64,000 nucleotides of DNA from Nemertoderma westbladi (lineage: Eukaryota > Animalia > Xenacoelomorpha). Below are positions 12,861-64,000 of this stretch, in pieces. The notes beneath the pieces were generated by a model. That model had not been told where the DNA came from and ran no database searches. It saw only the letters and a list, made by a program, of their open reading frames with translations. The number at the start of each line of letters is the position of its first letter. Position 1 is the first letter of the stretch. Made by a program: the position numbers and the translations under genes. The DNA lies in the NCBI GenBank assembly GCA_032718475.1, contig JAUCBJ010006798.1, positions 1 to 64,000 on the forward strand. The letters are read 5' to 3'.

Positions 12861-13821
12861 CCATTAGAAGACCCATTGGAGCGGACCTTTAGAGACTTAC
12901 CGAATTTGACTTCTTTGGACGACAAAGGTGTGGCCACAGCGATTACACTCCGCTCGAAGAAGGTACTTGACTTACCACCTACAGGTAAGCGTGTGACTAA
13001 GGTTAGGAAGCTTACAGGCTCACAGGAACACACTGACACTGTAGAGTTGAAACCGTTACTGCCAGTCGACACATTAGGTGCGGATGGTAAAGGTAAGACC
13101 GTAGAGATTGACGTACTTGGGGACTCAGACAAACCTACTGGAAGGCCCGTGGGCCTACCAAGTCCAGACAAGTATCCACACTACGACTACACCTTACCCG
13201 ATGACGTCACTAACACTTACGTTGACAGGATAGTGAACCTAACTAGATCATGGACTGACGCGTGCCGCAAGTTAGCATGGCTCAAACGATTGAGACAATA
13301 TGCCAGAGGCAAACGCGACTTTCCTAGAAGACTTACCTTAAAGGAAATTGGCCAATGTGAAGTTGATATCATTAGACATTATCAATTGCGATATTTCGCA
13401 CGAGAGTTCACAGCAAGGTAAAGGTAAACAGATTAAGTCTTCACCGATTTTGAGTTGGAGTCCGATTATTTACCGGGGCTTACTTTGTCACAAGTCCAGA
13501 CTCCAAAACATCGACTTTGCACTTGACTTTAGGTATCCTATCATCAAACCGCAACACCATGAATTACAGCGCGCTATGATACTGGACGCACATGTACAAC
13601 TCAAACACGTGGGTAGACACCACTGTCTATCACACTTACGCTCGAGGTTTGTACTGATTAGACCTAGTAAGGCACTGAGTTCGGTAACACGGAACTGTAT
13701 TATTTGTAAGAAGGTGCACGCGAGGATAGGACACCAAGAAATGAGTGAACTACCACTAGCAAGATTACAGGCGTTTAGACCCCCTTTCACTGAGACAGGG
13801 ATAGACTGTTTTGGACCCATA

Positions 13822-26623: not shown

Positions 26624-27547
26624 ACAGGAGACTACAAATCTCCACCCAATATTGGTAAATAGATGTGGGACCTTGATTGGCATTGGGATTTATTCATTTC
26701 GTATTTTCTTTTACTAACCACAGCAATTAATTTAACTGTGTGTTTCCTATTTTTTACTATTCCGCTGGAGTTTCTGACAAATATATATATATATTTTTTT
26801 CCATTCAAATTTTAACATTGAAACATAATTTCCTGGAATACCTTAATCATAATACTATAAATACTTACATTCATTACTATTTATATATGTTGCAGTTTGA
26901 GTCACGCACTAGCTATGCTATGTGCCTTAAACTGTAGATATACTGAGCTACATAAATATTAGTTTATTTGTGCAGTAGGCCCATACACCATTATATTCTG
27001 TAATGTCTGTTATGTAAATTAAATTAAATGAATTAAATGAATTAAATGAATAAATGAATAAATGAATTGGCCGCCACATAGACCTACTGTATTTTAGTTA
27101 TTTGTATTTGTATTACTGTATGTGCATTTGTAATCCTCTTCACTGTAGATAGAGACAGCGGTGGAATTCCATTGTCTTTATACGTGAACATGGAGGGTAG
27201 TACCCTTATGTATCACATAGGAGCGGGATTGTGTGTACAGTAGGAATGGAATTCCACTTGGAACCCACAAGTGAGACATTTTTTCAAAAATTATTAGACA
27301 AATCCATTTATTTGGATTAAAATTTAAGAAAAACGATTCTCCAGTGAAAGCAAATTCTAGAATACAGCTAGATAATAATTAAAATTGGGGAGGACAAGAG
27401 CGGATGGAAGGCTTGCGAGCCTACCGATAAATTTTTTTTGGAAAAGAAAATCGGCCTTGTTCTACGTAGTCGTGTCTACTATTATTTAGACCAATTAATT
27501 CTCGACTGCACTATTTTCTTGGGAAATGTAGCATGGGAAATTAAAAG

Positions 27548-27745
27548 GTGAGTATTTTAGACTCGCGGCTAGTTTACCCGGAATTCGTTTTTTTATTGGC
27601 ACATTTTTTGGATTAGGAGCCAGTGCGAAATCACGCGAACCCGAAATCATTAGGCAAATGGGTTGGGGTTTAGAGCAGAGTTGAGCCAAAAGCCGACAAA
27701 CTCTAAGTCACCTCACATCTAACCTCTATTTTGTGCTTCATCTAG
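27548..27745 (+). other. Predicted 198-nt intron in the leader of the accessory ORF of B
   Basis: AAAAG|GTGAGT donor, CATCTAAC branch site, pyrimidine tract, TAG acceptor 42 nt before the ATG; same signals and spacing in E. Confidence 0.65.
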
Positions 27746-27787: not shown

Positions 27788-30700
27788 ATGGAGAAGATGT
27801 ATAAAGAGTTACGTCAAGGGTTTACGCAAGAACAAGAGCACCAGGCGCCATTCAATCGTTATGGAGCTAAAAACTTTAGTGTGTTTGGAGTGGAGAGTAT
27901 GGCTAGGAGTACGGCCATGCTCGCTAAATCCAAGGCGGACCCGAATGTTACGCGACAGCGGTTGGACGCATACAACAAAAGAACGGAGGAATTACGCGTG
28001 GAGTTCAATGCGTTATATCCCTACGATGCGTTATGCGACGCTAGCGACATTTGCGAGGATCCAGACACCGAAATATGCCGATTGTATCATACGCTGCAAT
28101 ATTTGACAGTAAACGAACCCTTACCTGCAGCTAGAGACGAATTTGAAGGAATGCATCTTTATAGACGCGCTCAAGGAGCGGATCCAGAGACCAAGGACGC
28201 GTTCTCCATATACAAACTGTTTTATAAATGTGGAGCGTGTATGCGCGAGCAAGACAACGCGATTCCTATGCGGTTGAACTCGGAGAACCCCGAGCCGATA
28301 TTAGCGCGATGTTCACACCACCAAAGTCTACGTTACCAAGAAGGCGGATACCCTTTGACAAATCCGTATCATTCGTTTAAAATGAGTGGACCGAACGCGG
28401 GTGAGATCGTTATTTACGAACCCAAATTAGTCGAACCAGACGTCTACAGCATGGTAGTGGACGAGTCTAATAAGTCGACACAAGAGAAACGGGAAGCTTT
28501 GAGCCTCTACAGGGCGTACAAGGCGTACGAGAAAGGCGAGATCGAGGAGTTCGGTGGAAGGCTCGCGAGCCTACCATTCTATTGGATATCCCACGATCAA
28601 ACCGAACCCAAGGAGATGACACCCGAGCTCTTCGATAGTATCACCTTTGCTCAGCGTTTGTCGCAGAGACTACAGATACCTCATGTCGAGATGACGCGAG
28701 AACCTCAGCCCCATTCTACTGGAGCGATAGTACCGGTTGCGAGACCAACTAGTTTTCCTATTAGTATACCAACCTGGAAGGAGACAACTTACGAGATCCC
28801 TATAGTTGAACACCCGGAGATCATCTCGAACCTGGATTTCCTCCCATCGGTTACCTTTGGTGATGTGTTAGAGTCAGCCGAGTTGCGTAAAGTAATAGTT
28901 CAAAAAATCGTACGCAACGTGCCTCCACATATTATGGACTTTAAGGAAGTGGATCGCGCGGGGACGGATATCGCACCTTGTATCTTGCGAGGATATCTGA
29001 CGAAGACGATTCGATTATGGATCGGAGTTGGAACGTTTGAGACCGACACCGATATCGCGACCAATTGGACCGGTAAACCTATTAGTTTCGATGATGAAAA
29101 GTCGATTGGGAGAATTTGGAACCCTACCGACGATTTACTCGACGATTGGGACGTGACTAGCCGATCTCTGAAAGAGAATGGTTATATGTTTTACGATAAT
29201 GAAGGAGGAAGCCATCAGCAAAGCCTCACTTCAAAGACTATACAGATTAGACCACCAGATGGCGTGTTACATGTCTTCAGCCGACAGAGGAGTGATAGGA
29301 AGATGCCTATGCCGGAAGGAACGACGCAAAGACACGCGATGATAAAACGGATAGTTAAATCCATGGACCTGGCTTGTAGCATAGAAGCTAGGATGTTGCC
29401 AAAGGCCGTGCGAGACGTTGTGTTGGACAAGAGCATCGTCAAGATCAGATCCGGTGTACGGGATGACCTTATTAGCGATTTTGCAGGGATGCCCACGGAA
29501 GAGGACCAATTGCCTACGCCATACGTGGATACTAGACCATTGTTGCTTTGGGCTATTGAGCAAGGATATTTTAGGGAGTATAACACGCTAAAAACTGGGA
29601 CGGGTTATATCTCATATCTAATGTTCAGTTGGGATTACAAGGAGAGTAAGAGGAACAAATACATGGACGTATACAGAGAGGGAGATACCCCCGGCGTAAA
29701 CGAGTTCGAGTCACAGTTGAAGTGACGAGGTTGTGTGTATTGGGCGATTACTTCACCTCCGCGGATAATCTTGCAATACTATTTAGCGATAGAATCTTCG
29801 GTTAACGTTTGTTTCATCGCGGACGTAGTATCCAGAACCCTAAAGCGACACCCGTTATGTCTTGGCGAAGGACATACCTTTTACGATGGAGGAAGGACGC
29901 ATACTGATGTATTCCGACGATTTCTCCAACCCTTTTATAACACTGCTGCGCACTGCGAAGTTTTCAAGCGAGCGGGACTTAGCATTTTCAGGGACGTCTA
30001 TCTCTCTCACGCGGCAAGTCTAGTCGACAGACCGTCGATGTTAACGTTAGTACCCTATGACGGGGAACGCCACGTGGAATTCGAACGCCCGGAAGGATCC
30101 TGGAAGGCTCGCGAGCCTACCGCCCATCACGACGATGTGGATCCGACCGAGTTGGCGCTAATAGACGAACCGTTACAGCAACTCATAGAGATAGGGGAGA
30201 ACCTTCCGAGGAAGACGCGAACTGAGATACGCGAGTTGGAGAAAAGCGATGCCATGGTTTGTGTACAACCTACGGAGACGAACATACCGACTGACCCGGA
30301 TGATGAGAATTATCACGTGGACGGTAGCGCTTGCCCCATCGGAGATCTCATCTATGAGCGAGTTTGGTATCCTGCCAACACTATTTGTGGCAGATGCGGA
30401 GCAACTGGCCATCGCAGTGCGGAGCGAAGCACATATCTCTACCGGATTTAGTATGCAACTGGTGCGGGGATCAGCGTTCGCACACTTTCTACACTTGCTG
30501 GCGTTTCGTGGCGCAGTGTACTTATTGTAATATTAAGGGCCATAGGGCATCCGAATGTCAACTTAGAGACGTCCCCTATGAGCACATGTCAGTTAAAATC
30601 GTTCGACAATTATTCGACCATTGGGAGGATCTAGCAGACGAGCATGTATCGACGCAGCGACGCCGCTTCCCTATGAGAGCACATTTGGGATTTTGGGCCG

Positions 30701-31533
30701 TAAACCCTCTCATAATGTCAAAGGAAGGATATGTATCGGCTATGCCTCAGTATGATGAATTGTTGGAGGTATTGGATATATTGCCGTTGGACAGTGGATT
30801 CAAAGTTGTGCGGGACTATTTCTTACAAGTGCACCCCGACAACAAGAATACTTGGAACTTTCAAACTGTGGTGAACAAGATTACCGCCGGAGAATTCGAT
30901 AAACTGCGAGTTGAACAGCGGAATCGAGGAGCCTGGCATTCGATAGCTTGGGCATACCGGAGCGCATTTTATCACAAACGCGTAACCTCGTGTATTCTGG
31001 ACGAGACCGACGTTTTGCGTGAGACTGGCTTCAAGGCCACGCCATTAGCAGAAAAGACGCGTCACCCACAGGATGATCAGCAATTTCGTATACTCAAAGC
31101 CCAGAAGGCCGGACAAGAGATAAAGAAGATAGTGAATGTCGCCGAGAGGACGACATCGAAGTCGCAAATCCGGATGACTCGGGGCACGGTTTCCCTTGCT
31201 AGAGAACCACGCGGAGGGACAGGATACGCTTTGACTGAACCCATTAGGATTCAAACGACGTCAGAGAGCGAGGTGTCAACGGACGGAACGGTCCTACCCT
31301 TTCGACTTCCTCCTAGCGTTGTAGAGACTCGATCCGATGTTAAGCCGACAGTTGGAATCGGACGAGGATTTAGAGGATTGAGCGCACGACGGATGTGCAA
31401 AACTCCCGTCGTCCCCTTTCCTAGCGTTTTGGAACCACCGACGACTCGACGCCGAAGTCCGAGCCCAGTTCGACCTCGACCACCCCCCAATCGCACTAGA
31501 GGACGTGGACGAGCCCGCTCAGCGAAGGAATAG
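27788..31533 (+). pseudogene. Accessory ORF of B (~1250 aa if repaired): unknown N-terminal domain, DEDD/DnaQ-like 3'-5' exonuclease, three CCHC knuckles, basic tail; in-frame TGA at 29723 and a frameshift near 30425
   Basis: FYDNEGG..IQI..LHVF..LPKAVRDVVLDKSIVK..GVRDDL..YVDT..YW..LQYYLAIES follows the WRN/RNase D exonuclease motif order; CGRCGATGHRS.., CNWCGDQRSHTFYTC, CTYCNIKGHRASEC. Confidence 0.8.
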
Positions 31534-31569
31534 GAAGCGAGGAGAAGGAAGGCTTGCGAGCCTACCGAT

Positions 31570-31640: not shown

Positions 31641-32184
31641 ATTATGTTTGAATGTTGGGTTTGGAGGAGCGAGATATGGAAAGGAAGGCTTGCGAGCCTA
31701 CCGTTAGCAATTGGTGCTCAGGAGAAGATATCCAGACCAGCAGGACGAACTTTTAAGATCGTCAGGAGGACTCTTTAAGACTCATTTTAAAGTTATTAGC
31801 GCATTGTGTTTATATTATATTTGAACTGATTTAATTTGGTGGAAGTTTATTATGTATATTTACAATATGTAAAGATTTATCGAAAGAGATTTGAAATTAT
31901 TTGTTTGATTTATTCTAATTTGTTTTGATTCTAATTTGTTTAATTTGCTTACCTTGATAACCGAAAGCCTTTTTTGTATTTTAGGCACTAAAGTTAATTA
32001 GTAAATTTGTATTTGTATGTACGATCGATTGTATTTACGCCGTATCTGCAATATTAAGTATGCAATAATTAGATAGTGATTATATTTTATATTTTAGGCC
32101 CCACCAGTAGATTTAGAAGTAGTTTGTAAATATTTTATATTTCGATTGGTGAAAACAGTCTTACTTACTGTTTTCATGGAGCGG

Positions 32185-34945: not shown

Positions 34946-35595
34946 TTATTGTATAAATTTGGACCAACCTTGAATCAGTATTTTCATTTCAACCATTTGA
35001 ACTGGGTTAATCCCGGATAGGCTATTCCATCTAGGTCCTTTATTATCTAACGCTCCGTATAATCCATTAAGATTGGAATGATGGCAATTGTTGTACCACC
35101 ACGCCCCGTTATACTCCTGAGCGCAGTTCTTTTGTAACTCCATATCTAAATCGTTGTCATATGTTGTAAACGCCATTCCATTGTGGACTTGTTTTGGAGA
35201 ATTATCGTTGGTCAGCGAATCGCCGGCAGTAGAATCCTGGTCATTGTATCCTGATATCTTTAGCTCATAGTTGGTGGCAGCAGATAGAACTTCAAAGGAT
35301 GAATATTCTGCATAACTCACAATATTATTGTAGCAAAGTCCTACTCTCAGTTGAACTCCTCCCTGCTGGGTGAGCTGGTGAATATTTTCGAGGCCAAGCC
35401 AAAACTCGTTGTTTATGTCTCCGAACCCAGTTACGTATTCATCCCAATTTCTATAGAAATCAACAATCCCATTCATTCTTCGTTGAATGACGATCCATTG
35501 ATCTCCTTGTTGATCGTCGTAACGAAGATAACCGTTGAGACTGTTTACAGTGGCAGGAAGAACTTCTCCATTAGATTGTAACTCCGCGCATGTTA
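34946..35595 (-). CDS. Host exon encoding a fibrinogen C-terminal (FReD) domain; terminal exon
   Basis: WIVIQRR..G.VDFYRNW..Y..GFG...EFWLGLE, AGDSL, F.TYDND, GAWWYNNCHHSNLNG; phase-1 acceptor TTTTCATATAG; no stops. Confidence 0.92.
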
Positions 35596-40302: not shown

Positions 40303-40631
40303 CTGTAAACAAGTAAATATTTATTGAGTAATAATATATAAATAATTCATTTCGACTTTTGTGTAATCCAGAACTATTTATGATGACAATGCGCACCGAA
40401 GCACAATTCAAAATGAATTTATCGACCTCTATCTATACTGACTATGAGAAAGCTTCATTCTGGCTAAAGCTGCGTAGCCACGGAATTAGTGGTAGGTTAC
40501 AAAGGTTACAACGTTTTAATAATTTTTTTTTAAGAGAATCAACTCAACACCCCATGTCGGGGTATAATATATTTATATATTATACAGTTATAGCACAAAA
40601 TAAAATAATAATAAATAATAAAATTGCTAGT

Positions 40632-46388: not shown

Positions 46389-47103
46389 GCGAAGTGTTTA
46401 GACATGAACTTACAGGCGCTAAATATTTCAATTAATACTGTACTTACTAAGGATGAAACCAGAACTGTTATGCAGAGTAACTGTCGAGTATCATCAGTAA
46501 TGCCAAACACCGACATGGTTCTGGCGCTAAATGGACTAAGTTTGAGGTATTCTAGACCGGGGTCGTGGACTCTAGAACAACTGTCTTATTTGAGGGACAT
46601 AGACCTAACATATCCAGAAGTGGATGTTGACAAGATTTCCATGATTGTTGGCTTAAATAATCCATTGGTGCACAAAACACTTGAGGAGGTGTGAGGTCCA
46701 ACAGATTATGACAAGTTGCACAATCCTCATGCAGTTAGAACACCTTTAGGTTGGACATTAGCAGGTCCCATTACATCAACTGTGGCAAACTCATGCTTGG
46801 GCTCGAATGAAAATTATAAGGCATCTGCTGATTCATCCCCTCGCATACGAAATGGCTCAGTAGCTCAACCTCTTCAATTATTAGGAGCATCAACTAATTT
46901 TGCTGGTACAATAAGGATAAAGTCTTTGTATATCGTATAGACTGTTGTCCCTGGAGGGGAGACAACAGAATGGACGACGAAATAACATCGGACTTGATGA
47001 CTAAGTATTTTGACTCAGAAGCATTTTATTGTCCATCTAAAATGCAGACCAAATCAGTAGAGGATCGCAGGTGTGAGGAAATTTTAGACGCCACTACAAC
47101 CTT

Positions 47104-49282
47104 TGTTAAACAACCTACCCCTGTACTAACTGCAGAACCGCTAAAACATACAAAGACGTGCTTTACTGTTAAACTAGCGGGTCCCTGCCTAACCAATAAA
47201 GACACAAAGACTGCTCTACTGTTAAACAGGGGTAATCAGGAGCGTGTTATTACTAATGTAGGGCTGCTAAATACAAAACCGCTACTCACCGTTGGATGGC
47301 GCTAATCTGCCGTCCGCTAATATATTTTACTAATTTTCTACGGCTCCTGCTAATCGCTTGTTCCTTTCTCTACCGATCACTCGATAGAGAGCTAACTGTT
47401 CGAACAAATGAGCCACGCGGGAATAACCAAAACAATAAACCCGAATCGGCTCCCTAAGCTTACTTAAAACGAGTGTGAGAGGCTTTACACTCTGAGTATA
47501 TTCTTATGGCATAATCTTACTGTTAAAACGCGCTAATAATTACGTCTTTTCTAATCTAATCTAATCGCGTCTAATCGCAAAGACTGGGGTTCCCTAACGG
47601 AATGTGTGAATGTGAGAATATTTAAATAATCATATTTTATTTGCAGTGTTTATTAGGGCTAATACCTACAGTGGGACTAAACTTGCCTACGGCTGGCTTT
47701 AGGCCAGCAAATTACTAATGCGTGTTGCGTACTGCATACTGCGATCTAACTTATTGTCCGCTAATTAAATAACCGCCCAGCGTGAATAGTGTACTGTACT
47801 CCAAATTAATACCTTAACTACTCTCCGCTATGCTGCGTACAAATTCTTAATTTTACTAATTAATTACAGTCACAAATATGTTACAGCATACTAATTACTA
47901 AGTATTCCAGAATGCGCAATTCTAATTTATTACGTAACTGGTTATACTAGTAACAGTCTAAATACCGTATTACTTTCGACCTAATCAGTAATTATTTACA
48001 GTAAACTAAGAAATAGAAATCAATCAAAGGGGAAAAGAGCACCTATCCAAACATTCGTGATTTATTAGGCACACTTTAGTAACACACCAATCAGCGTAAC
48101 AATCAATATTTTATACTTACCAATTTAGTTCCTAATGCACAATTCTCAATTAGCGATCAACAGTTCACAACTCGCAGTCTACTACTCAGCTCGCAATGCA
48201 CAATCCACAATTCGCAATTCGCAATGTAAGGCACGTAGGCCTCTCCCGAGTACATCTAGGCTTCCTAACTAACCCGATTCCTGCCCCACTAATACTACAA
48301 AATAGAGACAAAATCTGGATCATCAGCCCCTAACTATTGTACCAACGAGCGGTCTCCACTCTACACTGCAAACTGCCCGACCGCAACGCGACCTTCCCGC
48401 CAGCATTGCCCGCCCTTGAATTACTACCGTAACGGAACATGCAAATCACAAGTCTGACAGTCTAAGAAAATCCGGTAGGATTATTGCATAGAAAGGAATC
48501 ACGTAGAACCATTAACTAAAGGGTAGAAATCATAGTTCCAGTTGTAATTGACAGTAATCATTGGGATTGATTGAGAAACACAAGCAAGAATAATCAAATT
48601 AGCGAATCATTGCAAGAAATAATCGAAAAAGCAGAAAATACAAAATTTACAACGAATTACGCACAAAATGTACTTAGGTGAGGTGGGAGAAAGTAGAACA
48701 GCACTGCAAGCTAGCTAGAGACTGGACTGGTGTGTGTTGTACATACCGGCAAAACGCCAATTTATAGGTGATTCGAGAGGGATGATGCAATCGTTCTCTC
48801 ATTGGCTCCCCAATCCGAGCTATCATTAGACCAACTTGGAAGCAGTTAGGCCAATAAGAAAGCCGGATCGTGAACCTATTGCTCCTAAAATCCACAATTC
48901 GTCACCATATAAGGTTATTTTGCCGATGCTTAATTTAGCGGTACTAATAACATGATGCACAAAGGTTAATTTAGCGCAATTATAGAGAAAATTAAAACCA
49001 ATAGCTAGCCCCATCAAGGCTAATAACAGCAAGCCCATATCCAGGGTCCAGCAGGAAACTTGCTACCCTGGAACTATCTACTTATATCCTATTACAAAAC
49101 TACATAGGTAGGGCTACATACTATACAAAATGGATGAATTCAAAATATATGGGCGTTTTATTTTCCTTATCTAAATGTCACTGCGATATTATGTCTTATC
49201 TAAATAATTATACTGCATAACGGACTAATATATTATACTGTATAACGGACTAATATATGTATACAGCGCATATACCGTAACA
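47104..49282 (-). repeat. 3' LTR of E (2179 bp, TGTTA...TAACA)
   Basis: 5-bp terminal inverted repeat; aligns with 62862-64000; PPT adjacent. Confidence 0.85.
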
Positions 49283-49550
49283 CCGCTCCAAGGGAAAACA
49301 TGCAATGTTTCCCTCCAATTGTAGAAGAGTATAAGGCGATATATACAAACAAAATAAATTCGCTTCCAAATAATCTAAATAACTATAATAATTCTATTAT
49401 ATTATATGCATATATACATATATTGCATAATGGATTGCATACAAATTAAATTTACAAAATATTATTTCCTTCAATGTTAACGATTATTACATACAAATTA
49501 AATTTACAAAATATTGTTTCTCGTTTGTTCTACATAATGATTACACTTTT

Positions 49551-52500
49551 CTAGTTTCCGAGTACACCCTTTGTTATGCGGTCGCAAATAGCAACAAAGT
49601 TCCAAGTGTACTTGTTATCCATATTTAATTGTCTGAAGTATTCCCGAACTTCGATGACTCCAGTGTTCTGTGGAAGGTCTTGAGCGGTCAGTATGAGCTC
49701 CTGATATTGTGGTAACGACTGACTGCAGATACGTCTCATACGCAACGTGTGATGGGTCCACTGCCCAAAATCCATATCCCGCCTTAAATGGTAACCAATG
49801 CATCTGCGCTTGGATGTGGTAGTCAGCCACACTCTCCCACTTATCTAGCATCTCCCGAAGTAGGTTAGCGCTATGGTTTTGGAAGGAATCGTCTCGCAGT
49901 TGGCATCTCGCGCTACGATGTCCCTTTACTCCACAATATCCACATTGAGAAATGAATACGGTGCACGTATGAAACGAATGGTCGGTCTCATTGCACCAAC
50001 GGCAGACCTTATGCGCCGCCTCCACTACCGCTTCGCACGATTTTTGATTGTGCCTTGTGCTGCCGCACAACTTGCACCTACGCGCTTGTGGAAACCAGGC
50101 CCTCTCGTATATGAGGTCTCCAATCGGTTTCGCACTTCCTTCTTTCCCAATGTCTAATACGATGTCATCCTCTCCGGTCAGTGGTTGTCGATCCGGAACA
50201 AAGTAAACATCATCGCCCTTGTCCTCTATCTCCAATATTTCCTCCCGCGTTCGTTTCGGATATGTCTTCTCCACTGGAAGATCCACTCCAAACACTTCTA
50301 CTAACATCTCCGGCCAACCCTCTCTAATAGGTCTATCAGCTTCCGAGTGGAAGGGAGTACCAAACCCGCGGGTTTGATTCCCGAACCACTTCTCTAAAGC
50401 CTCTGGCGTCGGATATTCCATCGACGGTCGGTCTCCCAAATCTCCGATGTTCTGTCGATATATTCCTTCGAATATCGCTAATCCTCTCCTAACCATCAAC
50501 GTATTCTCTAACGATTGGTTGAAGAACGGGGTTAAGAAACGCTTCATCACGTCGGATTGGATTCCCCCTTTCGAGCGAACGTATTGATCTCCTCCGAATA
50601 CCAATGGATGACACTTCAAAACTCGCGCAACGATATCCGCTAATAAACAAGTTACCGTGTTCGACTCAAGCACCAAATAATATTGTAGTGACGCACGGGG
50701 TGGCGCGCAAATGTTCCAATACACTACGCTTGCCGCTTGAAGTGGGATTTGAACTCCGCTCCCGGTGGCGTGTTATATTCACCATACGCCTCCTCGTACT
50801 TCTTCTGTGTCTTCAACTTAAAGTCCCAATTATACAATAAATGGGCTATGAAGCCCATGCCAGTCTTGGCAGAGTTGGGATACTCCCTATAAATTCCAAT
50901 ATCCTGTGCCCATAGCAACAATAGGTTGGTGTCGACAAACGGTCTCGGCAATCTATCTTCAAAATCAGTCATGGCGTTGAAGTCACTCTCCAAATCGCTC
51001 TGGACTCCCGATCCCACCTTGACGTAATCTTGGTTAAGAATAGCCTCTCTAACCTTCTTGGGTAGCATCCTGGTGTCGATACGCTCCGCTCCGTGCATAC
51101 CTCCTCGCCTGCATACCTCCAAAATCTGTTCCCTAGGATCCTTCCCCTTCCGATATTGTGTCGTTATTATGGGTTCCGGTCTCTCTCGATCCAGCCTTAC
51201 GCGCATAAACACATGAGTCACACCATCGGCCGCGCGAATTTGAATGCATTTGCTAGTCAAGCATTCCTGATGAGACCCTCCTTCATTGTCGTAGAACATC
51301 ACTCTCCAATCCTGCAGTGATTCCTCCGTTTTCCTCCACTGACGCTGAATCTCGTCTGATGGGGTCCAAATGCGCTCGATAGCCTTGTGGTCATCATATC
51401 GGGTGTAAGAACCCTTCCTCCTCAGCCACGTCTGGTCTACCTCCACGTCATCTGGGAACGTAGCCACCGCGACCCATACCTTGATGTACTTATCCAACCA
51501 TCCGAATAACTTACTCTCCTTCCCCGGAGCTCCAATCTTGTCCAGTGTGTCGTAGTCCGTGATCTGCATCGGGACATCACGCAAGAACTTTGCGCATAAA
51601 AATTCCCGTAGACAGTCGACGTTCCAATGATCCGACATCCTCACCATCGGCAAGAATCTAATCGCTTCTCGCGACTCCGGGTGATCTACCAATATTGCAG
51701 GTTCGTTGCCGTCGGAATAATACACCAGTCGGGGTTGAGATACGGCCTGTGGAACAAATCCAGTCACTCTCCTCGTCTCCTCCTGATGTCTATACGTGGT
51801 CTTATTATATTCCGCTACCCGCGCTTCGAATAACTGTTTCGCCTTCGCCGCTCGCTCCTCCTGCCGCAACGCGTCTATGTCGTCCTGATGCTCAGGCGTG
51901 AGGTTTCTCGCTCGATGAGGCGAAGTAAACGTAGTCCAGGGACTCGAGAGCTCCAAACCCGCGGGTTTGGTACCCGAGTCCCGTGCCGCTTCGCGCCGCG
52001 CCTCTAGGTCCTTGTAGACTCGGTATAGCGAAATGGCCGCTGCCGTCTCTATCAAACTGGGTGTCGAACAGGGTTTAATCTCCATATACGGATCTAATGT
52101 CGTAACGGTCGGTGTAATGGGTCTTAGAGGTCGCTTTCCGCTGAAGTCGATACTGATCATCGGGTTGCTCATTGGGTAACCTCCTCGTTGTATCTAAGGA
52201 ATTGGTGAGCTTGACATTGCGTTAATATCGGTTCAGGATGTTGCTCGTCCAGTCGGTCGGGAATCGCCACGTCTTGTTTGTTCATGCATTCACCACACTT
52301 GTAAAACAGCTTGTACACGCTGAAGATTTTCGGCGTCTCCTGATCCTCGCCTCGAGTCCTCCGGTACAGATGCATTCCGTCGAACTGATCTCGGACTGCA
52401 GGTAGAGGTTTGTCGTGTCGTAAATACATGTTCATATGGTACAGCCGCGCAATCTCCTCGTCCGGGTCTCCACATCGCAAACGTCCAATGCAAAATCGTA

Positions 52501-52737
52501 GGGATACCGAGTGCGATACTCTTTCCGCAAAACTTCCATACGGTCTCCCAACGCTCTCATTCTTTCCCTCCTTAATTCCTTATCGTACGCGGGTTTGTAC
52601 TTCCCATTTAGCTCCATTACTGACCTTCCATGTTAGTAAACGTTCGAATCTTTACATCCCGGTCAGGCAAATGGTAGTTCCGCCTCCTCTCTAGCAGTAA
52701 ATCCTCTCCGCGGTTGCGCTCTAATTTCCTTCTCCAT
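49551..52737 (-). pseudogene. Accessory exonuclease-CCHC ORF of E, several frameshifts, shorter C-terminus than in B
   Basis: Colinear with 27788-30900: FYDNEGGSHQ, KVGSGVQSDL, LQYYLVLES, CKLCGSTRHNQKSC, CRWCNETDHSFHTC, CGYCGVKGHRSARC. Confidence 0.82.
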
Positions 52738-52796
52738 TATGAGCCGCGTATATACATATATATATCCCAATAGGTTCCGTTACGTAACTAATTACA

Positions 52797-52994
52797 CTGT
52801 GGCGATGTGGGTAAATCAGTTAGATGTCGCCGAAGGTCAGACCTCCTAAGCCCCCCCCCCCCCCCCCCCCCCCACCCGCCTTCCAGCAGTTCAGGTTCGA
52901 CTCTCTAGATCCTGTCTCATTCCTAACTATCATCTAACCTATTCCCATGCATAGCGCAAAAACTTTGGAGATAAACTGGCCGTGACCAACTCAC
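52797..52994 (-). other. Predicted 198-nt intron in the leader of the accessory ORF of E
   Basis: AAAAG|GTGAGT donor, CATCTAAC branch site, CACAG acceptor; mirrors 27548-27745. Confidence 0.65.
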
Positions 52995-53519
52995 CTTTTG
53001 ATGCCCAACCTACTCCCATTACTCGTACTAAACTACAGTAGTTAGAAAGGACAATAGTCTCAACGCTCGACTATACCAAACCCACAGGTTTGTTAATCGA
53101 ACCTCACACTTCACTGCAAACTACTGAGTGGGGTCGTGTATGCCTCTGGTGCTACTAACCTTTAGCACCTTAGTTGCACTGTTGGCACCAATCTGTGGAA
53201 GTTGCTAAACTCAATTTATACTCCTACGTAATATAGCCATCACCATGGTTTCTAAATGCTATTTTCCAGGCTTCACGACTTTTCAAATTACTGTATATCT
53301 ATAGACGAATTCTAAAACGCGTCTATACACAGGGTCTGGAATTGTCTTGGGTTCATTTCTAAATTTTTAAAATTTTCTAATTTTCCAAAATTTTTGAAAT
53401 AAAATTTTGTTTTTGATACCCACCAGACAAAACTCAACGCAAATCACCGCAAACTCGCTCCTATGCATTTCCTAGTATTTGCATACAAGGAATGCATACA
53501 AAGTGAGTTGCGTCCAACA

Positions 53520-56500
53520 CTAATTTTTGATTGAGGCAGGAGACAAATTATAATCTCCCGTCTCGTTGCGTGTCTCCTCTAATAACACGATATCTTGGAC
53601 CGGTCGGTCCAAGGTGTGTAAACCATTAGTTTTACACTTCTTTGGGTGCGGACACTTGCACCTAATTTTCACAGTAACTGTGCGCACTATGTTTTGCACG
53701 TCTGGGTGTATATGCAAGATGACTCCTGTTTCCCAATATTTTCTCTTGACAATCGGTTCGGTTATCAATATGTAGTCTCCTCTTTGGAGGCTCCGAACCG
53801 TTTTGTACCACTTTGATCTGGTGGATATGGTGGGAAGATAGTATTCCCGCCAATATTCCCAGAATGTGTACGCGACTAATTGTGTTACTTTCCAGCTTTT
53901 ACGACTATATAGGTCAGCACTAATGGGTTCTGATGCCGGCACAAGAAATGCTGGACTCTGCATTAGCAAATGATTCGGCGTTAATGCAACACCGTCTGGC
54001 AACATAGCTATCGGCCTCGAGTTTAGTGTATGCTCGATTTCGATGAAAGCTGTGACCAGCTCGTCGTCAGTAAGTTGTTTGTTTACAGGCAAGGTTTTAG
54101 CAATGGCCTGCTTTATGGAACGAACCAAACGCTCCCAACTTCCTCCTCTCCAAGGACTTTCTGGAGTGTTGAATCTCCATTTTACTCTTTGCGGCAAAAG
54201 TGCTGCAGAAATTTCTCTATTCTGCGCTGCTTTGTGAGCCGCGTTTAACTCGCTATTCCCCCCGACAAAGTTTGTACCCTTATCAGAGTAGAACGCCTTT
54301 ACTAGTCCTCTCCTGGCCATAAATCTCTTTAAGGCCAGGAGCAGAGATTTGGTCGACATGTCTGCCACATGCTCGATATGTATGGCTCTACTAGCCATGC
54401 ATGTCAGTAGCAGGCCCCATCGCTTGTGGGTCAGCCGTCCTACTACTAGGATCGGCATGCTGCATTGCAGCTGCATTTTTAAGAATGCTGTGCCGGCTTG
54501 TCAACAAAATTGCACCGCCACAACTCCCTATCACCCATGACATTTGCTAGATCATCCGCATCTTTAAGGCCAGTGTCCTTTAAGATGCGTCTCAAGAAAG
54601 TCATGGGCTGTCCACCATGCTTATTCACTCCATGAGGCTGCCAAAGTACAAGATTATGCACTGGCTGGTCCTCACGGCGAAAGCAATGTCCTGCAAAGCG
54701 GAGGCGATTTTGTTCTAGTGTCAAGCTTGGGGGAACCAATGAGACACCTCCAATGTTATATAGTGTCTGGTTGGAGATGTGTGCATTGTACTTGACACAA
54801 TGTACCCGGCGTAGCATTCTTGTGAATGTGCCATCCAGAGATTTGGTGTCCTCAGCAGTTAGAGCCCAGCATGGACTCCCGTAGAGGAGTACTGGAACTA
54901 CTGCTGCTCTAAATAATCGGACCTTAAGTTTCCGATTAATTCTCGGTGACTTCCAAATCCTGGAAAGCCTATTCAAGGCTGCCCATGCCTTTCCCTTATG
55001 TATTCGAAGGTCCTCACCTGACTTCCTCAGCCGTCCACTCTTTGCCTCAATCGGACCAAAACAATCCACCCCTGTATTTGTAAAAGGTGGGTTATATGCC
55101 TGCACTCTCGCTTCCGGGAGTTCAGCCATCTCCTGTTCCAATACTCTGGCGTTCACCCTCTTGCAAACCAGACAGGCGTCGTACATGGTGCCTACTGCCC
55201 TGCTTGGCTGCAATAGAATGAATCGCTGTCTCGCTGCCGACAAACAGTGTAACTTTCCCGCAAACAGTGCAACCTCTTGTGTATATCCCATAGAATCGCT
55301 CTTTGCAATTCTATTGGGTGACTAGGGATTATCACTGGGAACCTAAACTGTGAGTTTAGGTCGACAGTCTGGATTCTCGATCTATGACAAATCAAACCCT
55401 TATGGATTAATGGACTCCATTTTCTAAGGGGTTTATAGAGAACTGGTCGTTGAGCCGATAATAGATAGAATTTCTTTGGGAAGGCACACATTTGATAATG
55501 TTTCAAATGCTTTAATTCCGCTTGATCAATCTCATCCTCTGTCAGAGGTTGTTTCAATTTCTGAATTCGCTCACTATTGACGCTCATTTGTTCTCCCAAA
55601 TGTTTCGAATGTTTTATACAAAGGTACGAAATGTATCGGCTTAACCACGCAGTTCTTTTACAAATTGTCAGCCAAGAGGCAGACGAATTTAGTAATTTGT
55701 CATAAATACTACATGGCTCTAATGCCAGCGATGGTTGCCCGCTAACTAATGGAAGTTTCGAATCCAAACCCGCAGGTTTGAAAACCAAAGGCTCCATTGT
55801 GTCGGTCATTTTCTGTCCGTCACTTACCAACTGTGACTCTGGTTTAGTCTGTAAGGGTGGTTTTATGTCATAACTTACCCTTCCGGACCTAGTCGTCACG
55901 TAAGTCTGTAGGTCTGACAGGTCTCCGGGCCGCTCCAATGACTCTTCAGGCTGCTCCAATGACTCTTCAGGCCGCTCCAATGACTTGAGTTTGGCTTTAG
56001 ACTTTGACTTAGAGACTTTCTCCACCTTGACTTCTGCATCGTCTGGCATCGGATTGGTCACTATCTTCAGTCGCTCTGGCCAATGTTCCTGTGTCCTCGT
56101 TAGAAAATCAGGTCTATGCAACCAAAACTCCTGGGACTCTTCCTGACAGAATTCCGCCGGCATTGCACCTCTCGAAGTTATGTCGGCCGGGTTTAACACT
56201 CCCGGACAATGTCTCCATTGTTCCTTCATCGAAAAGTCGACGATCTGAGCGCATCTGTTGGCCACAAATGTCTTTAGTGCAATATTGTCGGCCGCGATAT
56301 ATACTAACACTAAGGATGCGTCCGTCCAATAGAATAAGGTCAATGTCGTGTCTAACTCCTCTGTTATCTGCTTACTTACCTCAACTGAAACTACTGTCGC
56401 CTGTAACTCTGCACGAGGGACAGTCATGTATTTGACCGGCATTGTCTTTGATCTAGAAGTCACAAAAGCCGTCTCAAACTTGTCCTGACTTACCTCTCGG

Positions 56501-59500
56501 CAAAGGTAGGCTACCATACCAAAGCCGGTGTCACTTGCGTCACTAAATAAGTGCAGCTCGAGATCCGCTGGAAATACCAGCTGATTCGGAAAGTAGGAAC
56601 GGGGTACATCTATGTTTTACAATAGATGCAACTCGGCTTCCCACTCTCTCCACTGCTTTGCATGTATAGGAGATATTGGTTCATCTCACCCTAAGTCGGA
56701 CAACCAAATTTTCCTCATGCACGCTCGTGCCTGTAATATTACCGGACTGATAAAGTTCATCGGGTCAAATAGTCTACTTAACATCGATAAGCAAATTCTC
56801 TTTGTCAAAACTTTGTCTGGACTACTGGGCTCAAATCTAACTCTTACCTGGAACTTGTCCATGTTCGGGTTCCAAGTGAGTCCCAGTACTCGCGCCATGG
56901 GGATGGGTTCTACCCCCAATTCTATGTCTCCGCTCCCGCGATCTTTCACCGGGAATGACTCTAATAGGGCCTCCGAATTAGTGGTGAACTTGGTTAGAGG
57001 AAAACCCCCTGTAGCCAAGCACTCTTGCAGGCCGTGAGCCACTTCTATGGCTTGTTCCGCTGTGTCCTTGGACACCAATCCGTCGTCCATGTAGAAGTTT
57101 CTCAATATAGACTCGATAACCTCTACTGGGTACTTACCAATCTGGGCTGTTGTCGTTTTCTTTAGAACAAACAGCGTGCCATTTGGACTATCGCGGGCGC
57201 CAAATATCCTAACGTACATTTGGTATATAACCACTGGGCCGGATAAGTCTTCATTCTCAAACCAGAGAAATCGAAGGCTATCCTGGTCTGCCTTACAGGC
57301 TCTTACCTGGTGGAACATCGCCTCGATTTCACAAGTAAATGCGAATCGCCGCTGTCTAAAACGTAACAGTATACCTATCAAATAATTATTCAGGTTGGGT
57401 CTGTCCATCAACTCTGAATTCAGGGACATGCCTCTATAGACTGCTGCGCAGTCATTGACTACTCGGACTTTGTCAGGGTGAGTCACATAGTGGTGTGGGA
57501 GGTAATAAGTCTGGTCTGTCACTAAGTCAGGGTCCTCTACCTTCCCAGCAAATCCCTTGGCGAAATAGTTGTTGATCTGGGCGCAATACTTCTCCCTAAT
57601 GTCCGGATCCTTTAACAACCGAGCCCTTACTCCGTTCAATCTTTTCAAGGCTAAGCTGTAGTTGTTCTCCAACTTAGGAGGTTGTCGACGCCACAACATT
57701 CCAACTTCAAAATGTCCAGTCGGTAGCAGACGTATGGTATCTTCCATCATCTCCAGCAACCGTTTCTCATCAGCAGACATGGTTAGGTCATATCCACCGG
57801 GTTCCATTGCGTCCCTATCCAGCCATTCGACGGTTCTGGCTCCTGTCTCGAGGTCCTGACGTATCAATTCCTTCTGCAATTCCTCCTCACTGTATTGGAA
57901 AATGTCAAGGTCTCGATATTTAGCCACCTGACCCTCCACTATGTCGGTATAAGTCAAAACGTTACTCAGATAAGTAGCGTGGGCCGCTGAACCAGACCCA
58001 CGGGTCTGATAACAGTAGTCCTCGGGTTCACTATCTGTCCGGTCATTGTGGAGTGGTTCCGACAACCTAACATTATCGGGAATCAACTCCTTGTCCGACT
58101 CGCTAACGTCACTATAATGGTCAATACAGGTTCTCCTAAACTCGTCTATGTCTGGTGGTTCTACTAACGGTGGTTCAGTTATAGGCTGTAATCCGTCGTA
58201 TCTATCTATTGGCTTGTCACCACCTGTAAACTCGTAGGACATGGGTACTCTTGTATACCAACCTAATATAGTCCTATGGGCATGTGGTTCACATGTGTCC
58301 GCATGTGGTTACATGCGGTTCAGCTGGTCTCGTTTCCCATATCTGGTGTGCGATCAGCTGTTCTGCACCAATCAACATAGAAACATTCCTATAACCTACC
58401 TGGTGTCTGGATACTCTGAGCTTGTCAAAATACTCCTGTGCTATGGGACTCATCGGCGGCACCTTACCTAACTGCCTGCCGAACCCCTTCCTAGCTAGAC
58501 ACTTAAATCCGTCCAATGGCAAAGCTCTCCGTTCTTGTCGAGTATGTTGGTCTCTCGGAAGTAGGGAGTCTAGTTCTACCGAAATTCTGTGTCCCTTGAG
58601 GTCCCCTACCCCGTGCATAGACTTTAACTCTAATTAGATTTCCTCGGCGTCTTGGAAGCTAGAAACGGCTCTCGCCACTTCCTCGTCGATATAAGATAAT
58701 GTCTACGCAGTGTCCAACATCACATATATTCGCTTTGATCCCTTATCGCCAGTAAGTTTCACCGGAATAACTCTAAATATTTCCGACGTGGCCAATGATA
58801 AATACGTCCACGCACTGGTCGATGAACTATCCGCGGTAAAACCTTGGCAGGTCACTTCTCTCGCGCTCGACTCACCATCCTCGTCCAACGAACCTGGTTG
58901 ATAACCATCGTCCTGAATGCCGGTGTACGTATTTCTATACGATATTTTATCTATTTCGATACGGGTTCTTTGCTCCCCTTCCTTTGAGGATTTTGCTGTA
59001 AGTAACAATCCGTTGGAGTGTGGAAATCCGCATGTAGCAACTTGTGATGTAGTCTGCCGCATTCCATGCATCCGTCCTTGCTGTTTGGGCACTGCCGCCG
59101 TACATGACCTGGCGCAAGACATGCCCAACAGGTGTCCAACGTCCGTACTTGAACTCTTCTCTGTTCCGAATTTAATTCTTTGAACCGTCTGCAACTATCT
59201 AACTTATGGTCGTCAGATCTTACCTCCTTTAGTAAGCAGAATTGGCAACCTACAAATCCATCCGGCAACTCCTGTTGCTTTAACCTAGGTCTATCTAATC
59301 GCTCACCTGACCATACTCGCGAGTCTGATCTAAAGGCTGTGGTACTCGAATTATATCTGTCTACTGAGTTAAATGTCACAGTGGTCCTGTCATCGTCAAA
59401 ACTTACCATAGACTTACCGGTAACAGGTTTAGACTCTCTCATATTCTCCTCTGAGAAATTTGATTTCATCTCTGCTACTACTGCGTCTGTGGCTATCATG

Positions 59501-62411
59501 TCATGAATGTGCTGAAGTGTCAACACCTTACCTTGACCCTCCAACTTATTCTCTAATTTGCACCATTTTTGTCTGTAACGCATGTTTAAACGTCTTATTA
59601 CGCTCTTCAAAACTTCGGCATGATCACCATGGTGAGGTAGATTCACCGTCCTCAAGATGTCCAATGCGTTCGAAATAGCGTTCGCTGAGTTCAACAGCTC
59701 TAACGGAGTTGTAATCCTTCCACCCTTACCCAAGTCTTCCACTATCGACTGTGCCATCTTGGTTTTATTCCCGTAGATGTTGCTAAGCGTCTTCATTGCC
59801 AACTCAAACGCTCTTTCATTGCCGACGAAGTTGTCAGCAATGGCTCTAGGTTCTCGATGGAGCATTTGAAGCAAATAGTTGAACTTCTCATTGGGAGTAA
59901 AGGTTCTGTTGGTCAGCTGTTCGTCGACATAGGTTTTGAAAGTCCTCCAATGCTTATGGTTGCCCATAAACTTCTGGGGTTGTTGCGTCGTTCCGGGTTA
60001 ACAAATGGTTTAGTTCTGCAGGATTATTAAGTCTGGTCCTTTCCCGGGGATTAAAACTTACCTGCTCCGCGTCCGTCCTTCTTTCCTTATAGTTTCGGGA
60101 CTTCTGACGTCTCATTTCTTCCTCTTCATCGCTTGAGTCAGTATCAGTTATCAGCCCTCGCGTTGGTTTGCGCGCCGAAGCCCTGACCCAAGCCTCCTGT
60201 ATAAACTTCTCTGCCGAATTTTCGAAATTTGGATTATGGATAATCGGGACAGGCGTCCTTACCTGAGGTCTATGTGGTATAGTTGCCTCCGATATACGTA
60301 CTCGTTGACTAGGTTGGACTTTATCTAACTCAGGCTTGCTAGGATTGGAATTACTTCTTACCTGGGCTGCTTCCTTTAACTGCAGGTTGCTAAGCATGTC
60401 CGTTATAGGTTGGATGTGCGGCGATATAGCTTGCGCTAAACTAGCACGTAACTCATCCCTCGTAATAAATTCCTGGCTAGGGTTCTGTTGTATAGTCGGC
60501 TCTATCTGAGTAATCCGCTGTCTCTCATATGATCCCTCTTCCGGTTTAACCCGGAAGTTCTCCGTCGAACTGGGTCGGCGCTCCGTCTGCGTATTCCAAA
60601 CCCGCGGGTTCGGTTCGCCCAATACTCGTCCTGTCGGAGTTTCTCCCCTAAATTCTTCGTTCTCGCATTCGGTATGTAGTGGTGCGGTGTTCCGATGACG
60701 TGGATCCTGCGCGATGGGTGAAGCACTAATACCAACTGGTGTGCGATATGTAGAGAACGGTTTAGCGATCCGTGTACTCGTAATAGCTGGACCGGGTATA
60801 GGAATTATGGTCGTCGTCGACTCGCGTATGGTCGGAGTTCTCGCTTCCTGTTCGGCCTTCTGGAGTGCGAACAGTTCTCGCAACTCGGTACCTACACTCG
60901 CCCCACATTCTTCGATCATTCGCATCCCCTTCTCGGCGATTTCATTCGCCTTCCTAGTCCGTTCTTCGCTCTCTAGATTTAATCTCGCACTTTCTAACTG
61001 CGCCAGTTTACGTTCTTCTTCTTCCCTTGCTCGTCTCGCTGCGCTCTCTTCTTCCACACATGCCTTCTCTTCATACAACGCCTGTCGCTCCTTCTCGATC
61101 TCGCGTTCGCGTTCTTTATGCTCGTGTTCGAGTTGAAGTTCGTATTCCTTTTGTTCGCGTTCCTTGCGCTCACGCTCGACTTGAAGTTCGCGTTCCTTGC
61201 ACTCGCGCTCGAGTTGAAGTTCGCATTCCTTGCGCTCGCGTTCCGCTCGTTCACGCTTACCTTTATCCTCCAACTCTCGCAACTTCGCGTCTAACTTACG
61301 TGTGAGCTCCCGTTCCCGCTCGGCTTCCTTCCGTGCTTCCGATGCACGCAAAACTTCCGCCTCTTGTTCGTCCAGTCGGCGTCTTCTCTCCTCTGCCGAG
61401 TTGTGAGAAACAAGGGATCTAGCACATATAACCTTACCGCGCGCGTGACTAACCTGGGAATCGCCACTGTCTCTAGATGCGTCGTCGGGTGGAGTCAACG
61501 TTCTCTGTTGGATGTTCTCCGTAGTCGGTAGCACCTGGCCCGGTACCACCACTCCACTCTGCATCAACCAGCCGGTAACTTCCCGTTGATACCTGCACTC
61601 CTCTTTATCTTACGTTTCTTCCCGCTCCACTAAGTTTCTTGACTCTGCGTCACTCACCTGAGTCGCCTGCGCTTGTGATGCCCATAGCAGCCAGTTCTCC
61701 GTCCTAACTCGTCGAAATCGCTCCGATAACGTGCGATACTCCAACAAGGCTGCTAAAACCCTGTCGTAAATCCTCATCGCCACGTCGCTCGACTGAGACT
61801 CCACTGCTCTCTTTGCCAGGACTGCAAGCTCCTCTGTCTGCTTGAATAACGCTGAGTTGTATCCTCTTCTAATCTCTTAAACCTCTCCTAAACCCTTCCC
61901 TTCCGATGTTCGCTGAGTCGGCTAGCATCTTCCTTACCTTGTCCGCCGTCCGGGTTATATGTCCGTCATGAGCGCGAAGTTTCTTCTTTATCGCGATGTC
62001 AAGTTCTCTCTCGCTTACCTGACTTACACTTGGTGGACTTGAAGGATTATTCCAGGAACTACGGGTACTCCTTACAGCCGCTGGGACCACGGCACTTACC
62101 ATACCCACAGGTCTGGAAACCAGGCTCCGGGCTCTCACTTCTGCTACACTTCCCTCCCTATCACTCACCTCTGGTCGGGCTGTTGTACAATCCTTCCTTA
62201 CAGTAGTGGTAGGGGATTCTAATACTATTACTTCTACTTGCTCTTCCTCACTAGTTACTGTCTCGTCCTCCTGTTCACTTACGTCAGCGTCGCTCGCTGC
62301 GTCGTCATAGTCGGCATTATCGTCAACAGTAATATTATCGCTATCGTCAGTCGGCGGTCCAGCCGCCGTCTCATAGCTGTCCTCTAGTGCCTCCTTCTCT
62401 GAGACACTCAT
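53520..62411 (-). pseudogene. Disrupted gag-pol of E (coiled-coil Gag, CCHC, protease, RT YMDD, RNase H, integrase)
   Basis: CWACLAPGHVRRQC, VMLDTA, YYLPHH, FGARDSP, FYMDD, PRAEL, YWTDA, VDCFGP, SDKGTNF, GGSWER; many frameshifts and stops. Confidence 0.9.
54441..55026 (-). mobile_element. 5'-truncated RTE-like LINE inserted in the integrase of E
   Basis: 10-bp TSD TCAGCCGTCC (54431-54440, 55027-55036); VLLYGSPCW, RLRFAGHC, DRELWR; (TAG)n tail. Confidence 0.9.
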
Positions 62412-62861
62412 AGTCTAAATAATATTTGCCTTCCGGCCAAAATCTCGCAAAAATTCGAGATATATATATAATTTAATCGAAATACGATTAAATTATTTGT
62501 CAAATAATTAGTTGTCCAAATGTCAAAATAAATTCGCAATGCAATATTGTGAATTTAATAGGATACGGTTATAGCAAATACCAATACAATATTTAAACAA
62601 AAATATTATTCTATAGCTATTATATAGCATTTAAATACCGGTATAGCACAAAATAACTTTGAATCTAATACAAAATATTCAAAATAAACTTGCCACCCAA
62701 ATATTTCTAATTTTGCATATATAGCTCTAATCAACGCAATTTTAATTACAAATATTATATGTATCCACTAGCGCGTGGCTACATCTTCGGGCTGCGACTC
62801 TCTATCTCTCTAACTTGAGCGATTCAAAAAACCATGGCAGGCTAAACCTAACTAACCTAAC

Positions 62862-64000
62862 TGATAAACAACCGCGACCTCTATACTAACAGCAGAACTG
62901 TTGAACAGACCAATACCCGTTAATATCCTTCTGCCAACCTAATAAGTTCTCGTCTAACCAATAAGACACAAAGACTGCTCTACTGTTAAGTAAAGGGGAT
63001 CAGGAGCGTGCTATTACTAAATTGTAAGGGTTGCTAAATACAAAACCGCTACTTACCGTTAGATGGCGCTAATCTGCCGTCCACTAATATATTTTACTAA
63101 TTTTACACTACTCCTGCAAAATCGCTTGTTCCTTTCTCTACCGATCGCTCGATAGAGAGCTAACTGTTCGAATCTATGAGCCACGCGGGAATAACCAAAA
63201 CAATAAACCCGAGTCGGCTCCCTAAGCTTACTTAAGACGAGTGCGAGAGGCCTTGCACTCAGAGTATTCTTACGCCTAATTTTATCACTATTAAAGCACG
63301 CTATTACCTACGTCTTTCTAATCGCGAATACTGGAGGTTCCCTAACGTAATGTGTGAATGCGAGAATATTTAAAATATCAAAATGGTACAGTATCTGTTT
63401 CTACGTGGATAATACCACTCCGGGTCTAAAACTGCCCGCGACTGGCTTTAGGCCAGCAAAATTACTAGCGTATCGTGCGTACCGAATAGTGCGTTCTAGC
63501 TGATTGTCCGCTAATGCAAATAACCGCTCAGCGTGAATAGTTTACAGTACACTAATTATTACCTTAGCTACTCTCTGCTATGCTGCGTACTAATTCTTAA
63601 TTTTTTACTAATTAATTACAGTCACAAATATTTAACAGCGTACTAATTACTAAGAGTTCCAGAATACGTAATTCTAATTTATCACGCAACAGGTTTCGCT
63701 AGTAATAGCCTAATTTGCCGTATTACTTTGACCTAATCAATAACTAATTATTGTAACTAAGAAATAGAAATCAATCAAAGGAAAAGAGCGCCTATCTAAG
63801 CATTCGTAATCTTAGGCACACTTCAATAACACACCAATCAGCGTTAGAAATCACAGTTTACAATTGTGCAATTCACTACTCGTACTCCACACTCAACGTT
63901 ATAATACGCGCAGGCCTCTCCCGGGTACATCTAGGATTCCTAACTAACCCAATTCCTGCCCCCTAATACTAAATAGAGACAAAACCTGGATCATCAGCCC
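62862..64000 (-). repeat. 5' LTR of E (partial), noticeably diverged from the 3' LTR
   Basis: Aligns with 47104-48329 with many substitutions and indel blocks. Confidence 0.85.

Follow-up and report, generated by a model that had tools for sequence, protein, structure and literature searches.

Two sister long terminal repeat (LTR) retrotransposons, elements B and E, carry a short palindromic hairpin at many places along their sequence; both lie among nested BEL/Pao elements in a eukaryotic stretch of 64,000 nt from Nemertoderma westbladi (contig JAUCBJ010006798.1, positions 1 to 64,000; hereafter the window). Element E, on the minus strand, carries seven copies including a degenerate one, and element B, on the plus strand, carries six. 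All 13 hairpins have a loop of the form YGYG, and each family has its own, nearly uniform version of the stem. The repeated hairpin is real and is judged to be a selected signal, which likely works as sense-strand RNA. We favour, tentatively, the reading that the copies are dispersed, family-specific RNA pairing sites, which would resemble the SL-A/SL-B stem-loops of murine leukemia virus (MLV) but in multiplied and homogenised form.

The sequence-only reading that preceded this work had reported five CAAACC-YGYG-GGTTTG sites in E, one of them with a G.U pair. All five are present at those places on the minus, sense strand, and the G.U pair lies in the gag copy at 60596..60613 (loop CGCG). That list was incomplete, as a fuzzy scan also recovered a copy in the protease-reverse transcriptase linker (57991..58010; loop CGUG, with an A-U pair compensated to G-C) and a degenerate copy in the first gag-region open reading frame (ORF; 62099..62115; loop UGUG, one G.A mismatch). 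Further along the E RNA, sites are found in the RNase H-integrase linker (55763..55782; UGCG), in non-coding sequence 92 nt 5' of a donor-like site (53076..53092; UGUG), and in an extra gene, 3' of the peptide motifs SLYR (51953..51970; CGCG, with a longer predicted helix) and DRPSM (50359..50378; CGCG). These last four sites have counterparts in B, respectively in the pol linker (13140..13159; CGUG, with a compensated pair), in non-coding sequence 134 nt 5' of a donor-like site (27406..27425), and in the homologous extra gene 3' of SLYR (28556..28575) and 3' of DRPSM (30102..30121). The last two B copies lie just 3' of the extra-gene stop (31547..31566; without an E counterpart in this copy) and farther 3' of the gene (31683..31702), 136 nt apart and beside a small tandem repeat. 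The consensus of the six B sites is GG-A-AGGCY-YGYG-RGCCT-A-CC; all six are asymmetric and oriented in the sense direction. Copies with a CGCG loop are perfect 16-18 bp palindromes. In E the sites span the whole genomic RNA at steps of 1.1-2.7 kb; no intact copy was found in its LTRs or leader, the first (degenerate) copy lying within the first ORF, and the window does not include the 5' part of B. Three of the seven E sites and five of the six B sites are at or inside the extra gene.

The exact E pattern matches four times, against a mean of 0.03 in shuffled sequence (0 of 100 shuffles as high). A pattern-free test, which counts the members of the largest hairpin family with a common 5-bp stem, scores 4 in E and 5 in the 3' part of B, and shuffles reach at most 2 (100 each). 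Likewise, E gag-pol holds 3 hairpins against a mean of 0.08 under synonymous shuffles. Whether the other elements A, C and D have an equivalent repeated hairpin had been raised as a check; in the pattern-free test their largest family is 1, and within the window the hairpin is confined to B and E. Furthermore, a core pattern common to both families, drawn up after the sites were seen, gives 15 matches, at 11 locations that all belong to B or E (0.03 expected). Among 13 distant BEL/Pao loci, which total 56,475 bases and are mostly short (integrase identity 30-40%, L001 and L002 being near-copies), we found no sense-strand YGYG hairpin with at least 5 pairs, hairpin families of at most 2, one unpaired pattern match and nothing related to the extra gene. 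Rfam gave 0 matches in the window at gathering score. The minimum-energy fold of a 61-nt context retains the hairpin at 11 of 13 sites, the exceptions being E 62099 and B 27406. No hairpin position is among the 40 contig differences listed of 1446, which we do not count as evidence.

The signal behaves as sense-strand RNA because its departures from a perfect palindrome are one-sided and because its copies span all three reading frames. Counted on the sense strand over loops and stems, with the constant A.A of B and the outermost position of E left out, these departures comprise 14 G.U, 0 A.C and 2 others, whereas CpG change between the E LTRs is strand-symmetric (7 TG, 6 CA). Loop positions 2 and 4 are G in 13 of 13 copies, positions 1 and 3 are C or U, and the second stem pair is an invariant C-G in all 13, across both families. 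A peptide motif was considered and is ruled out by the use of three frames. A stability loop of the UNCG type is also ruled out, given that the closing pair is U-A in most B copies and that U occupies position 3 in 4 of 13 loops.

It had been claimed that the stem of E differs completely from that of B. This is wrong, as the inner five pairs differ by compensatory transitions only (198 transitions and 0 transversions in pairwise comparisons between families, the degenerate copy left out). A-U and C-G pairs among them are common to both families, the E copy at 57992 and the B copy at 13140 are one base pair apart, and the common core of both is RRRCY-YGYG-RGYYT. The B and E stems are one homologous stem that has drifted by compensation, with different outer pairs, rather than two codes of separate origin. 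Homogeneity within families was borne out: over 16 stem positions, outer pairs counted, copies differ on average at 2.1 within and at 11.4 between families. The loop, said to be kept from B to E, is indeed YGYG in all 13 copies, though its individual letters vary.

The proposed homology of four E sites to B sites stands for the region and the codon phase. Offsets from common anchors agree within 1-7 codons or 42 nt: from the SLYR anchor to the hairpin, 20 codons in B and 22 in E; from the DRPSM anchor, 28 and 21; from the hairpin to the pol SW[TL] anchor, 34 and 33; and from the hairpin to the donor-like site, 134 nt and 92 nt. The loop starts at an identical codon position in 3 of 3 coding pairs. 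Local protein identity around the paired sites is only 16-28%, so the same region is shown and the same alignment column, which had been implied, is not. The sites sit in low-conservation linkers, and the unrelated flanks reach to the very border of the motif; site turnover inside the linkers may be an alternative to column homology.

If the sites pair in trans, each 16-20 nt self-complementary site would fold as an RNA hairpin, which would open, probably helped by a zinc-knuckle chaperone (the Gag nucleocapsid or the extra protein), and then base-pair in a 16-20 bp duplex with any other copy from the same family. Kin RNAs would pair and travel together, and the sister family's RNA would be left out; such pairing in cells could serve dimerisation, co-packaging or RNA clustering. 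All 13 YGYG loops are self- and cross-complementary when G.U is allowed, which makes every site palindromic over its full length; 36 of the 256 tetraloops are self-complementary. The computed energy of the duplex minus two hairpins averages -12.9 kcal/mol for E-E, -14.3 for B-B and +3.8 for E-B. When the 256 loops are ranked by duplex over hairpin, CGCG is 4th, and the C-to-U loops compare with their mirrors as 24 to 61 (UGCG, CGCA), 18 to 58 (CGUG, CACG) and 64 to 167 (UGUG, CACA). This loop ranking is separate evidence, whereas the energy gap within and between families restates stem homogeneity. Near-identical whole stems across reading frames are what trans pairing demands; proteins usually read less of an A-form stem than the whole-stem near-identity seen here. 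The sequence-only reading had proposed a family code with an element-encoded binder; the family-homogeneous sense-strand RNA hairpins stand, and a binder is plausible but unneeded, as base pairing alone could discriminate. The co-evolution of code and binder that it also proposed would be conjecture, two sister families counting as a single evolutionary event.

Several points weigh against pairing in trans. Following as it does from stem homogeneity, the energy gap is not independent support. Dimerisation in register needs no likeness among sites, and pairing across sites is assumed. The dimer signals known elsewhere are grouped in the 5' leader, and the E leader and LTRs have no intact copy; sites at the extra gene imply that spliced mRNA would carry some of them as well. 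For the two UGUG copies the benefit of pairing is small (rank 64 of 256), and the prior for a self-complementary loop is 14%. In the 61-nt context only 3 of 13 sites beat shuffles (z below -3), and 2 of 13 are without the hairpin. The 14:0 ratio does not represent 14 independent events, as UGCG is shared by three B copies and the outer U.G by three E copies. The covariation that speaks for pairing, with 92.8% of cells paired on the named structure and two-sided change in 4 of 7 pairs, is descriptive, the sites having been chosen for pairing and their kinship ignored.

The extra gene lies 3' of pol in B and E and, by tblastn, in no other element of the window. In E it spans 49566..52737 (minus strand), is frameshifted and has a 3' end shorter than B's; the homologous B gene (27788..31533, plus strand; 37-60% identity to E) has one stop and one frameshift. 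The predicted product has a Cys/His-rich N part, an exonuclease-like middle and zinc knuckles (weak zf-CCHC match, E-value 0.009). No Pfam exonuclease (PF01612) match was found for it, and two fold predictions have pLDDT 31.7 and 33.1. WRN exonuclease is the only PDB match (E-value 1.1), with an alignment that supports the ExoII stretch only, and a single-sequence PDB search gave one chance match (E-value 1.5) and otherwise none. An indirect link to DEDDy exonucleases runs via P0067 (E-value 7e-05, HHalign 96.6%), whose Atlas neighbours are PF01612 (score 0.90). Judged by eye against the usual spacing, the DEDDy motifs D-N-E and the ExoII D are presumably common to B and E, with Y-x3-E replacing Y-x3-D. 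One distant match was obtained among 1.84 billion representatives; word-based protein searches, viral and metagenome contigs, Atlas and Pfam yielded no relatives, and an integrase scan of viral contigs was empty. Contigs of three sequencing runs skip 324 bases (52266-52591) in the first part of the E gene, marking a deleted subfamily.

An intron of 198 nt is predicted from its sequence 5' of the extra gene in both elements, at 52797..52994 (minus strand) in E and 27548..27745 (plus strand) in B. The geometry is equal in both, with a donor-like word, a branch-like word at +171 and YAG at +198; E has another YAG at +207. No joint for the predicted E intron is among the 15 contig joints listed (443 others), which is not counted as evidence. 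Upstream, E gag-pol (53500-62450) is laden with donor-like GGTAAG words, 21 sense and 0 antisense, and the extra gene has none; the coding segments of gag-pol hold 20, whereas synonymous shuffles average 4.4 and none of 500 reaches that count. B pol fragments are weakly enriched (AGGTRAG 3 against 0.7, 9 of 500 shuffles; GGTAAG, 73 of 500). In C gag (20042-23243, minus strand) AGGTRAG occurs 7 times against 1.2, without hairpins or extra gene in this copy, A is not enriched, and L001/L002 have GGTAAG 4 times in sense and 0 in antisense. A fixed spacing from hairpin to donor words is ruled out, with distances of 7 to more than 2000 nt. Links of U1 and Rev to such donor words belong to the general background. 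The donor-word load fits a genomic RNA whose default fate would be splicing or retention and which an element protein would set free; together the extra gene and the donor words suggest retrovirus-like post-transcriptional control in BEL/Pao.

The hairpins could instead be operators for the extra exonuclease-like, zinc-knuckle protein, which, made from spliced RNA, would license the export, stability or translation of unspliced RNA in a Rev/CERV-like feedback, its specificity drifting between families; we rank this close behind pairing in trans. It is the idea of the sequence-only reading with the binder named. B and E have both hairpins and extra gene, while neither was found in A, C, D or the 13 distant BEL/Pao loci, but this co-occurrence amounts to a single gain in the common ancestry of two sisters. 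The sites cluster at the extra gene with its predicted 198-nt intron, and the GGTAAG words of E gag-pol are absent from that gene; yet donor words are weak in B pol and enriched in C gag, which lacks both hairpins and extra gene. In the portions of the sources covered, CERV of Cer1 (PMC10309623) and Egl (PMC13186709) offer precedents. The acidic residues of an active nuclease appear, by eye, to be retained, unlike in RNA-binding pseudo-nucleases, and operator binding leaves the self-complementary loops unexplained. Pairing in trans and operator binding can both hold. A composite that would be new is, in our estimate, unlikely: an RNA kin-recognition barcode, the exonuclease/zinc-knuckle protein and the donor-laden gag-pol would jointly decide RNA export, packaging and destruction, in a BEL/Pao lineage that multiplied a palindrome along its genome and homogenised it per family, with co-resident families sorting their RNAs by pairing.

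That Gag reads the hairpins as dispersed packaging signals, as in RNA-virus assembly, is improbable. The sites run along the whole E RNA, Gag has a zinc knuckle, and multiple dispersed stem-loops are known in MS2, hepatitis B virus (HBV) and others, but the known signals, in the parts of the sources covered, share a loop motif and have degenerate stems (PMC5699041, PMC7612645). The extra-gene sites would moreover mark spliced mRNA, and A, C and the 13 other BEL/Pao loci package without such a hairpin family. We see little chance that a dimeric protein, either a host factor or an element transactivator, reads the palindrome in double-stranded DNA, even though the CGCG copies are perfect over 16-18 bp, as many as DNA-binding dimers read, and one site lies in the non-coding stretch 5' of the extra gene: G.U outnumbers A.C by 14 to 0 against a symmetric CpG change, 6 of 6 asymmetric B sites are sense-oriented, compensation is two-sided, and the E LTRs have none. 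Similarly slight is the prospect of a host RNA-binding protein that reads an NGNG loop on any short stem. The invariance of G2, G4 and the second C-G pair in 13 of 13 copies speaks for it, and we take the UGCG and CGCG loops to be of the UNCG/YNMG classes; but one protein would not homogenise stems differently per family (2.1 against 11.4 of 16), and no Rfam match was found in the window. Most improbable of all is that the copies have no function and arose inside each element as side products of template switching or gene conversion, a reading that could draw on the location of the sites in low-conservation linkers and on B's last two copies, 136 nt apart beside a tandem repeat, but meets flanks that are unrelated to the motif edge, compensated pairs, and regions and codon phase kept across families that are 57% identical in pol.

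E is bounded by a 3' LTR at 47189..48329 (minus strand), free of the hairpin motif, and a 5' LTR at 62954..64000 (minus strand), which ends at the window edge and has a donor-like word at 63056; the two are 83-91% identical, the 5' LTR being incomplete at the window end. Its broken gag-pol (53520..62414, minus strand) matches DUF1759, zf-CCHC, Peptidase_A17 and DUF5641, and the domain order gag-protease-reverse transcriptase-RNase H-integrase together with the LTRs identifies it as BEL/Pao; its closest database relatives are 41-42% identical, all with BEL/Pao-type domain sets. B and E are sisters, supported at 100/99 in an RNase H tree (61 rows) and at 99 in a quick integrase tree (48 rows), both of which left out C and D, as these have no matching segment. 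Their pol regions are 57% identical, and both copies are disrupted by stops and frameshifts. B is interrupted by A, nested in its reverse transcriptase, and by C, in the end of its integrase; a long (S/P)-P-D repeat peptide is encoded in its pol linker (12440-12860, plus strand), just 5' of the hairpin site. C (15872-26623) has LTRs 99.9% identical and a 5-bp target duplication, as read from the sequence, and most of its pol is missing. A palindrome, TACCGGTA, occurs five times within 240 nt of the C leader (23360-23603), again at 25242, and in the E leader at 62636; its repeats are possibly C's own repeated signal of a different type.

Contigs from 4 of 7 sequencing runs were compared with the window at 46500-64000. 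The E integrase contains a LINE-like piece (54431..55026, no strand assigned; DUF6451 match) that contigs of other copies skip, and the joint 54430-55027, with a 10-base ambiguous junction, is found in all four runs. Two DNA runs cover E deeply, which, depth not being equal to copy number, is suggestive of many copies. The E LTRs diverge more (83-91% identity) than the ~4-7% between E and some contigs, a hint that this copy may be recombinant or old. Elsewhere the window contains a tandem array with units of ~63-65 nt (36443-39100) and, by eye, host-like ORFs of fibrinogen type and LamG type (34946-35638, 39626-40432).

Except for Ty1, little is known of how LTR retrotransposon families that share a cell keep from packaging one another's RNA. 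B and E amount to a natural swap experiment in 20-nt RNAs, with the same loop, a drifted stem and many copies. Family-specific pairing or binding, if true, would give retroelement families a route to split and stay separate, and would explain the concerted evolution of a motif within coding sequence. In the literature, neither such an extra gene nor dispersed homogenised palindromes were found described in BEL/Pao, in a search that was thin on subscription journals and repeat databases and leaves the absence unproven.

Judged from two families and decayed copies, the B/E hairpins are a new variant of palindromic or operator stem-loops already known; the comparisons that follow extend to the portions of the cited sources covered. 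MLV SL-A/SL-B are palindromic stem-loops of 10 and 16 nt that nucleocapsid converts into extended duplexes (PMC5874298), and the likeness lies in whole-palindrome stem-loops of a reverse-transcribing element able to switch to intermolecular duplexes. MLV, however, has two unlike sites in the 5' leader, against 6-7 near-identical sites in coding and non-coding RNA of B and E; the MLV and Ty1 dimer signals lie close to the packaging signal within the 5' leader, where E has no intact copy. In Ty1, the self-complementary PAL1/PAL2 pair RNAs in trans (PMC6844567), and in oskar a palindromic loop pairs localised mRNA in trans (PMC7357161), as predicted here for B and E; they differ in occupying a single 5' UTR or 3' UTR locus (UTR, untranslated region) without a dispersed homogenised family.

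On the protein side, CERV of Cer1 is an element protein that releases genomic RNA (PMC10309623), and B and E would resemble it and Rev/RRE in having an extra Cys-rich protein, here from a putative spliced RNA with the predicted intron removed, and splice sites kept in genomic RNA. In Cer1, however, the protein shares exons with Gag, the main text mentions no exonuclease domain, and the RNA target is not described in that article (0 hits for stem-loop and response element). Egl makes contact with stem-loops through its exonuclease-homology domain and counts two of them per transcript (PMC13186709). Bdelloid Juno and Vesta likewise carry an exonuclease-like extra ORF 3' of pol, the DEDDy exonuclease ORF3 (PMC5408684; mentioned in PMC6338049), but they are gypsy-like LTR elements with a short ORF3, whereas B and E are BEL/Pao with a much longer gene, zinc knuckles and a predicted intron; repeated hairpins are not described for Juno and Vesta in the parts covered. 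Finally, the packaging signals of MS2, satellite tobacco necrosis virus (STNV) and HBV have a common loop motif genome-wide on degenerate stems, in contrast to the near-identical, family-specific stems and the self-complementary loops of B and E.

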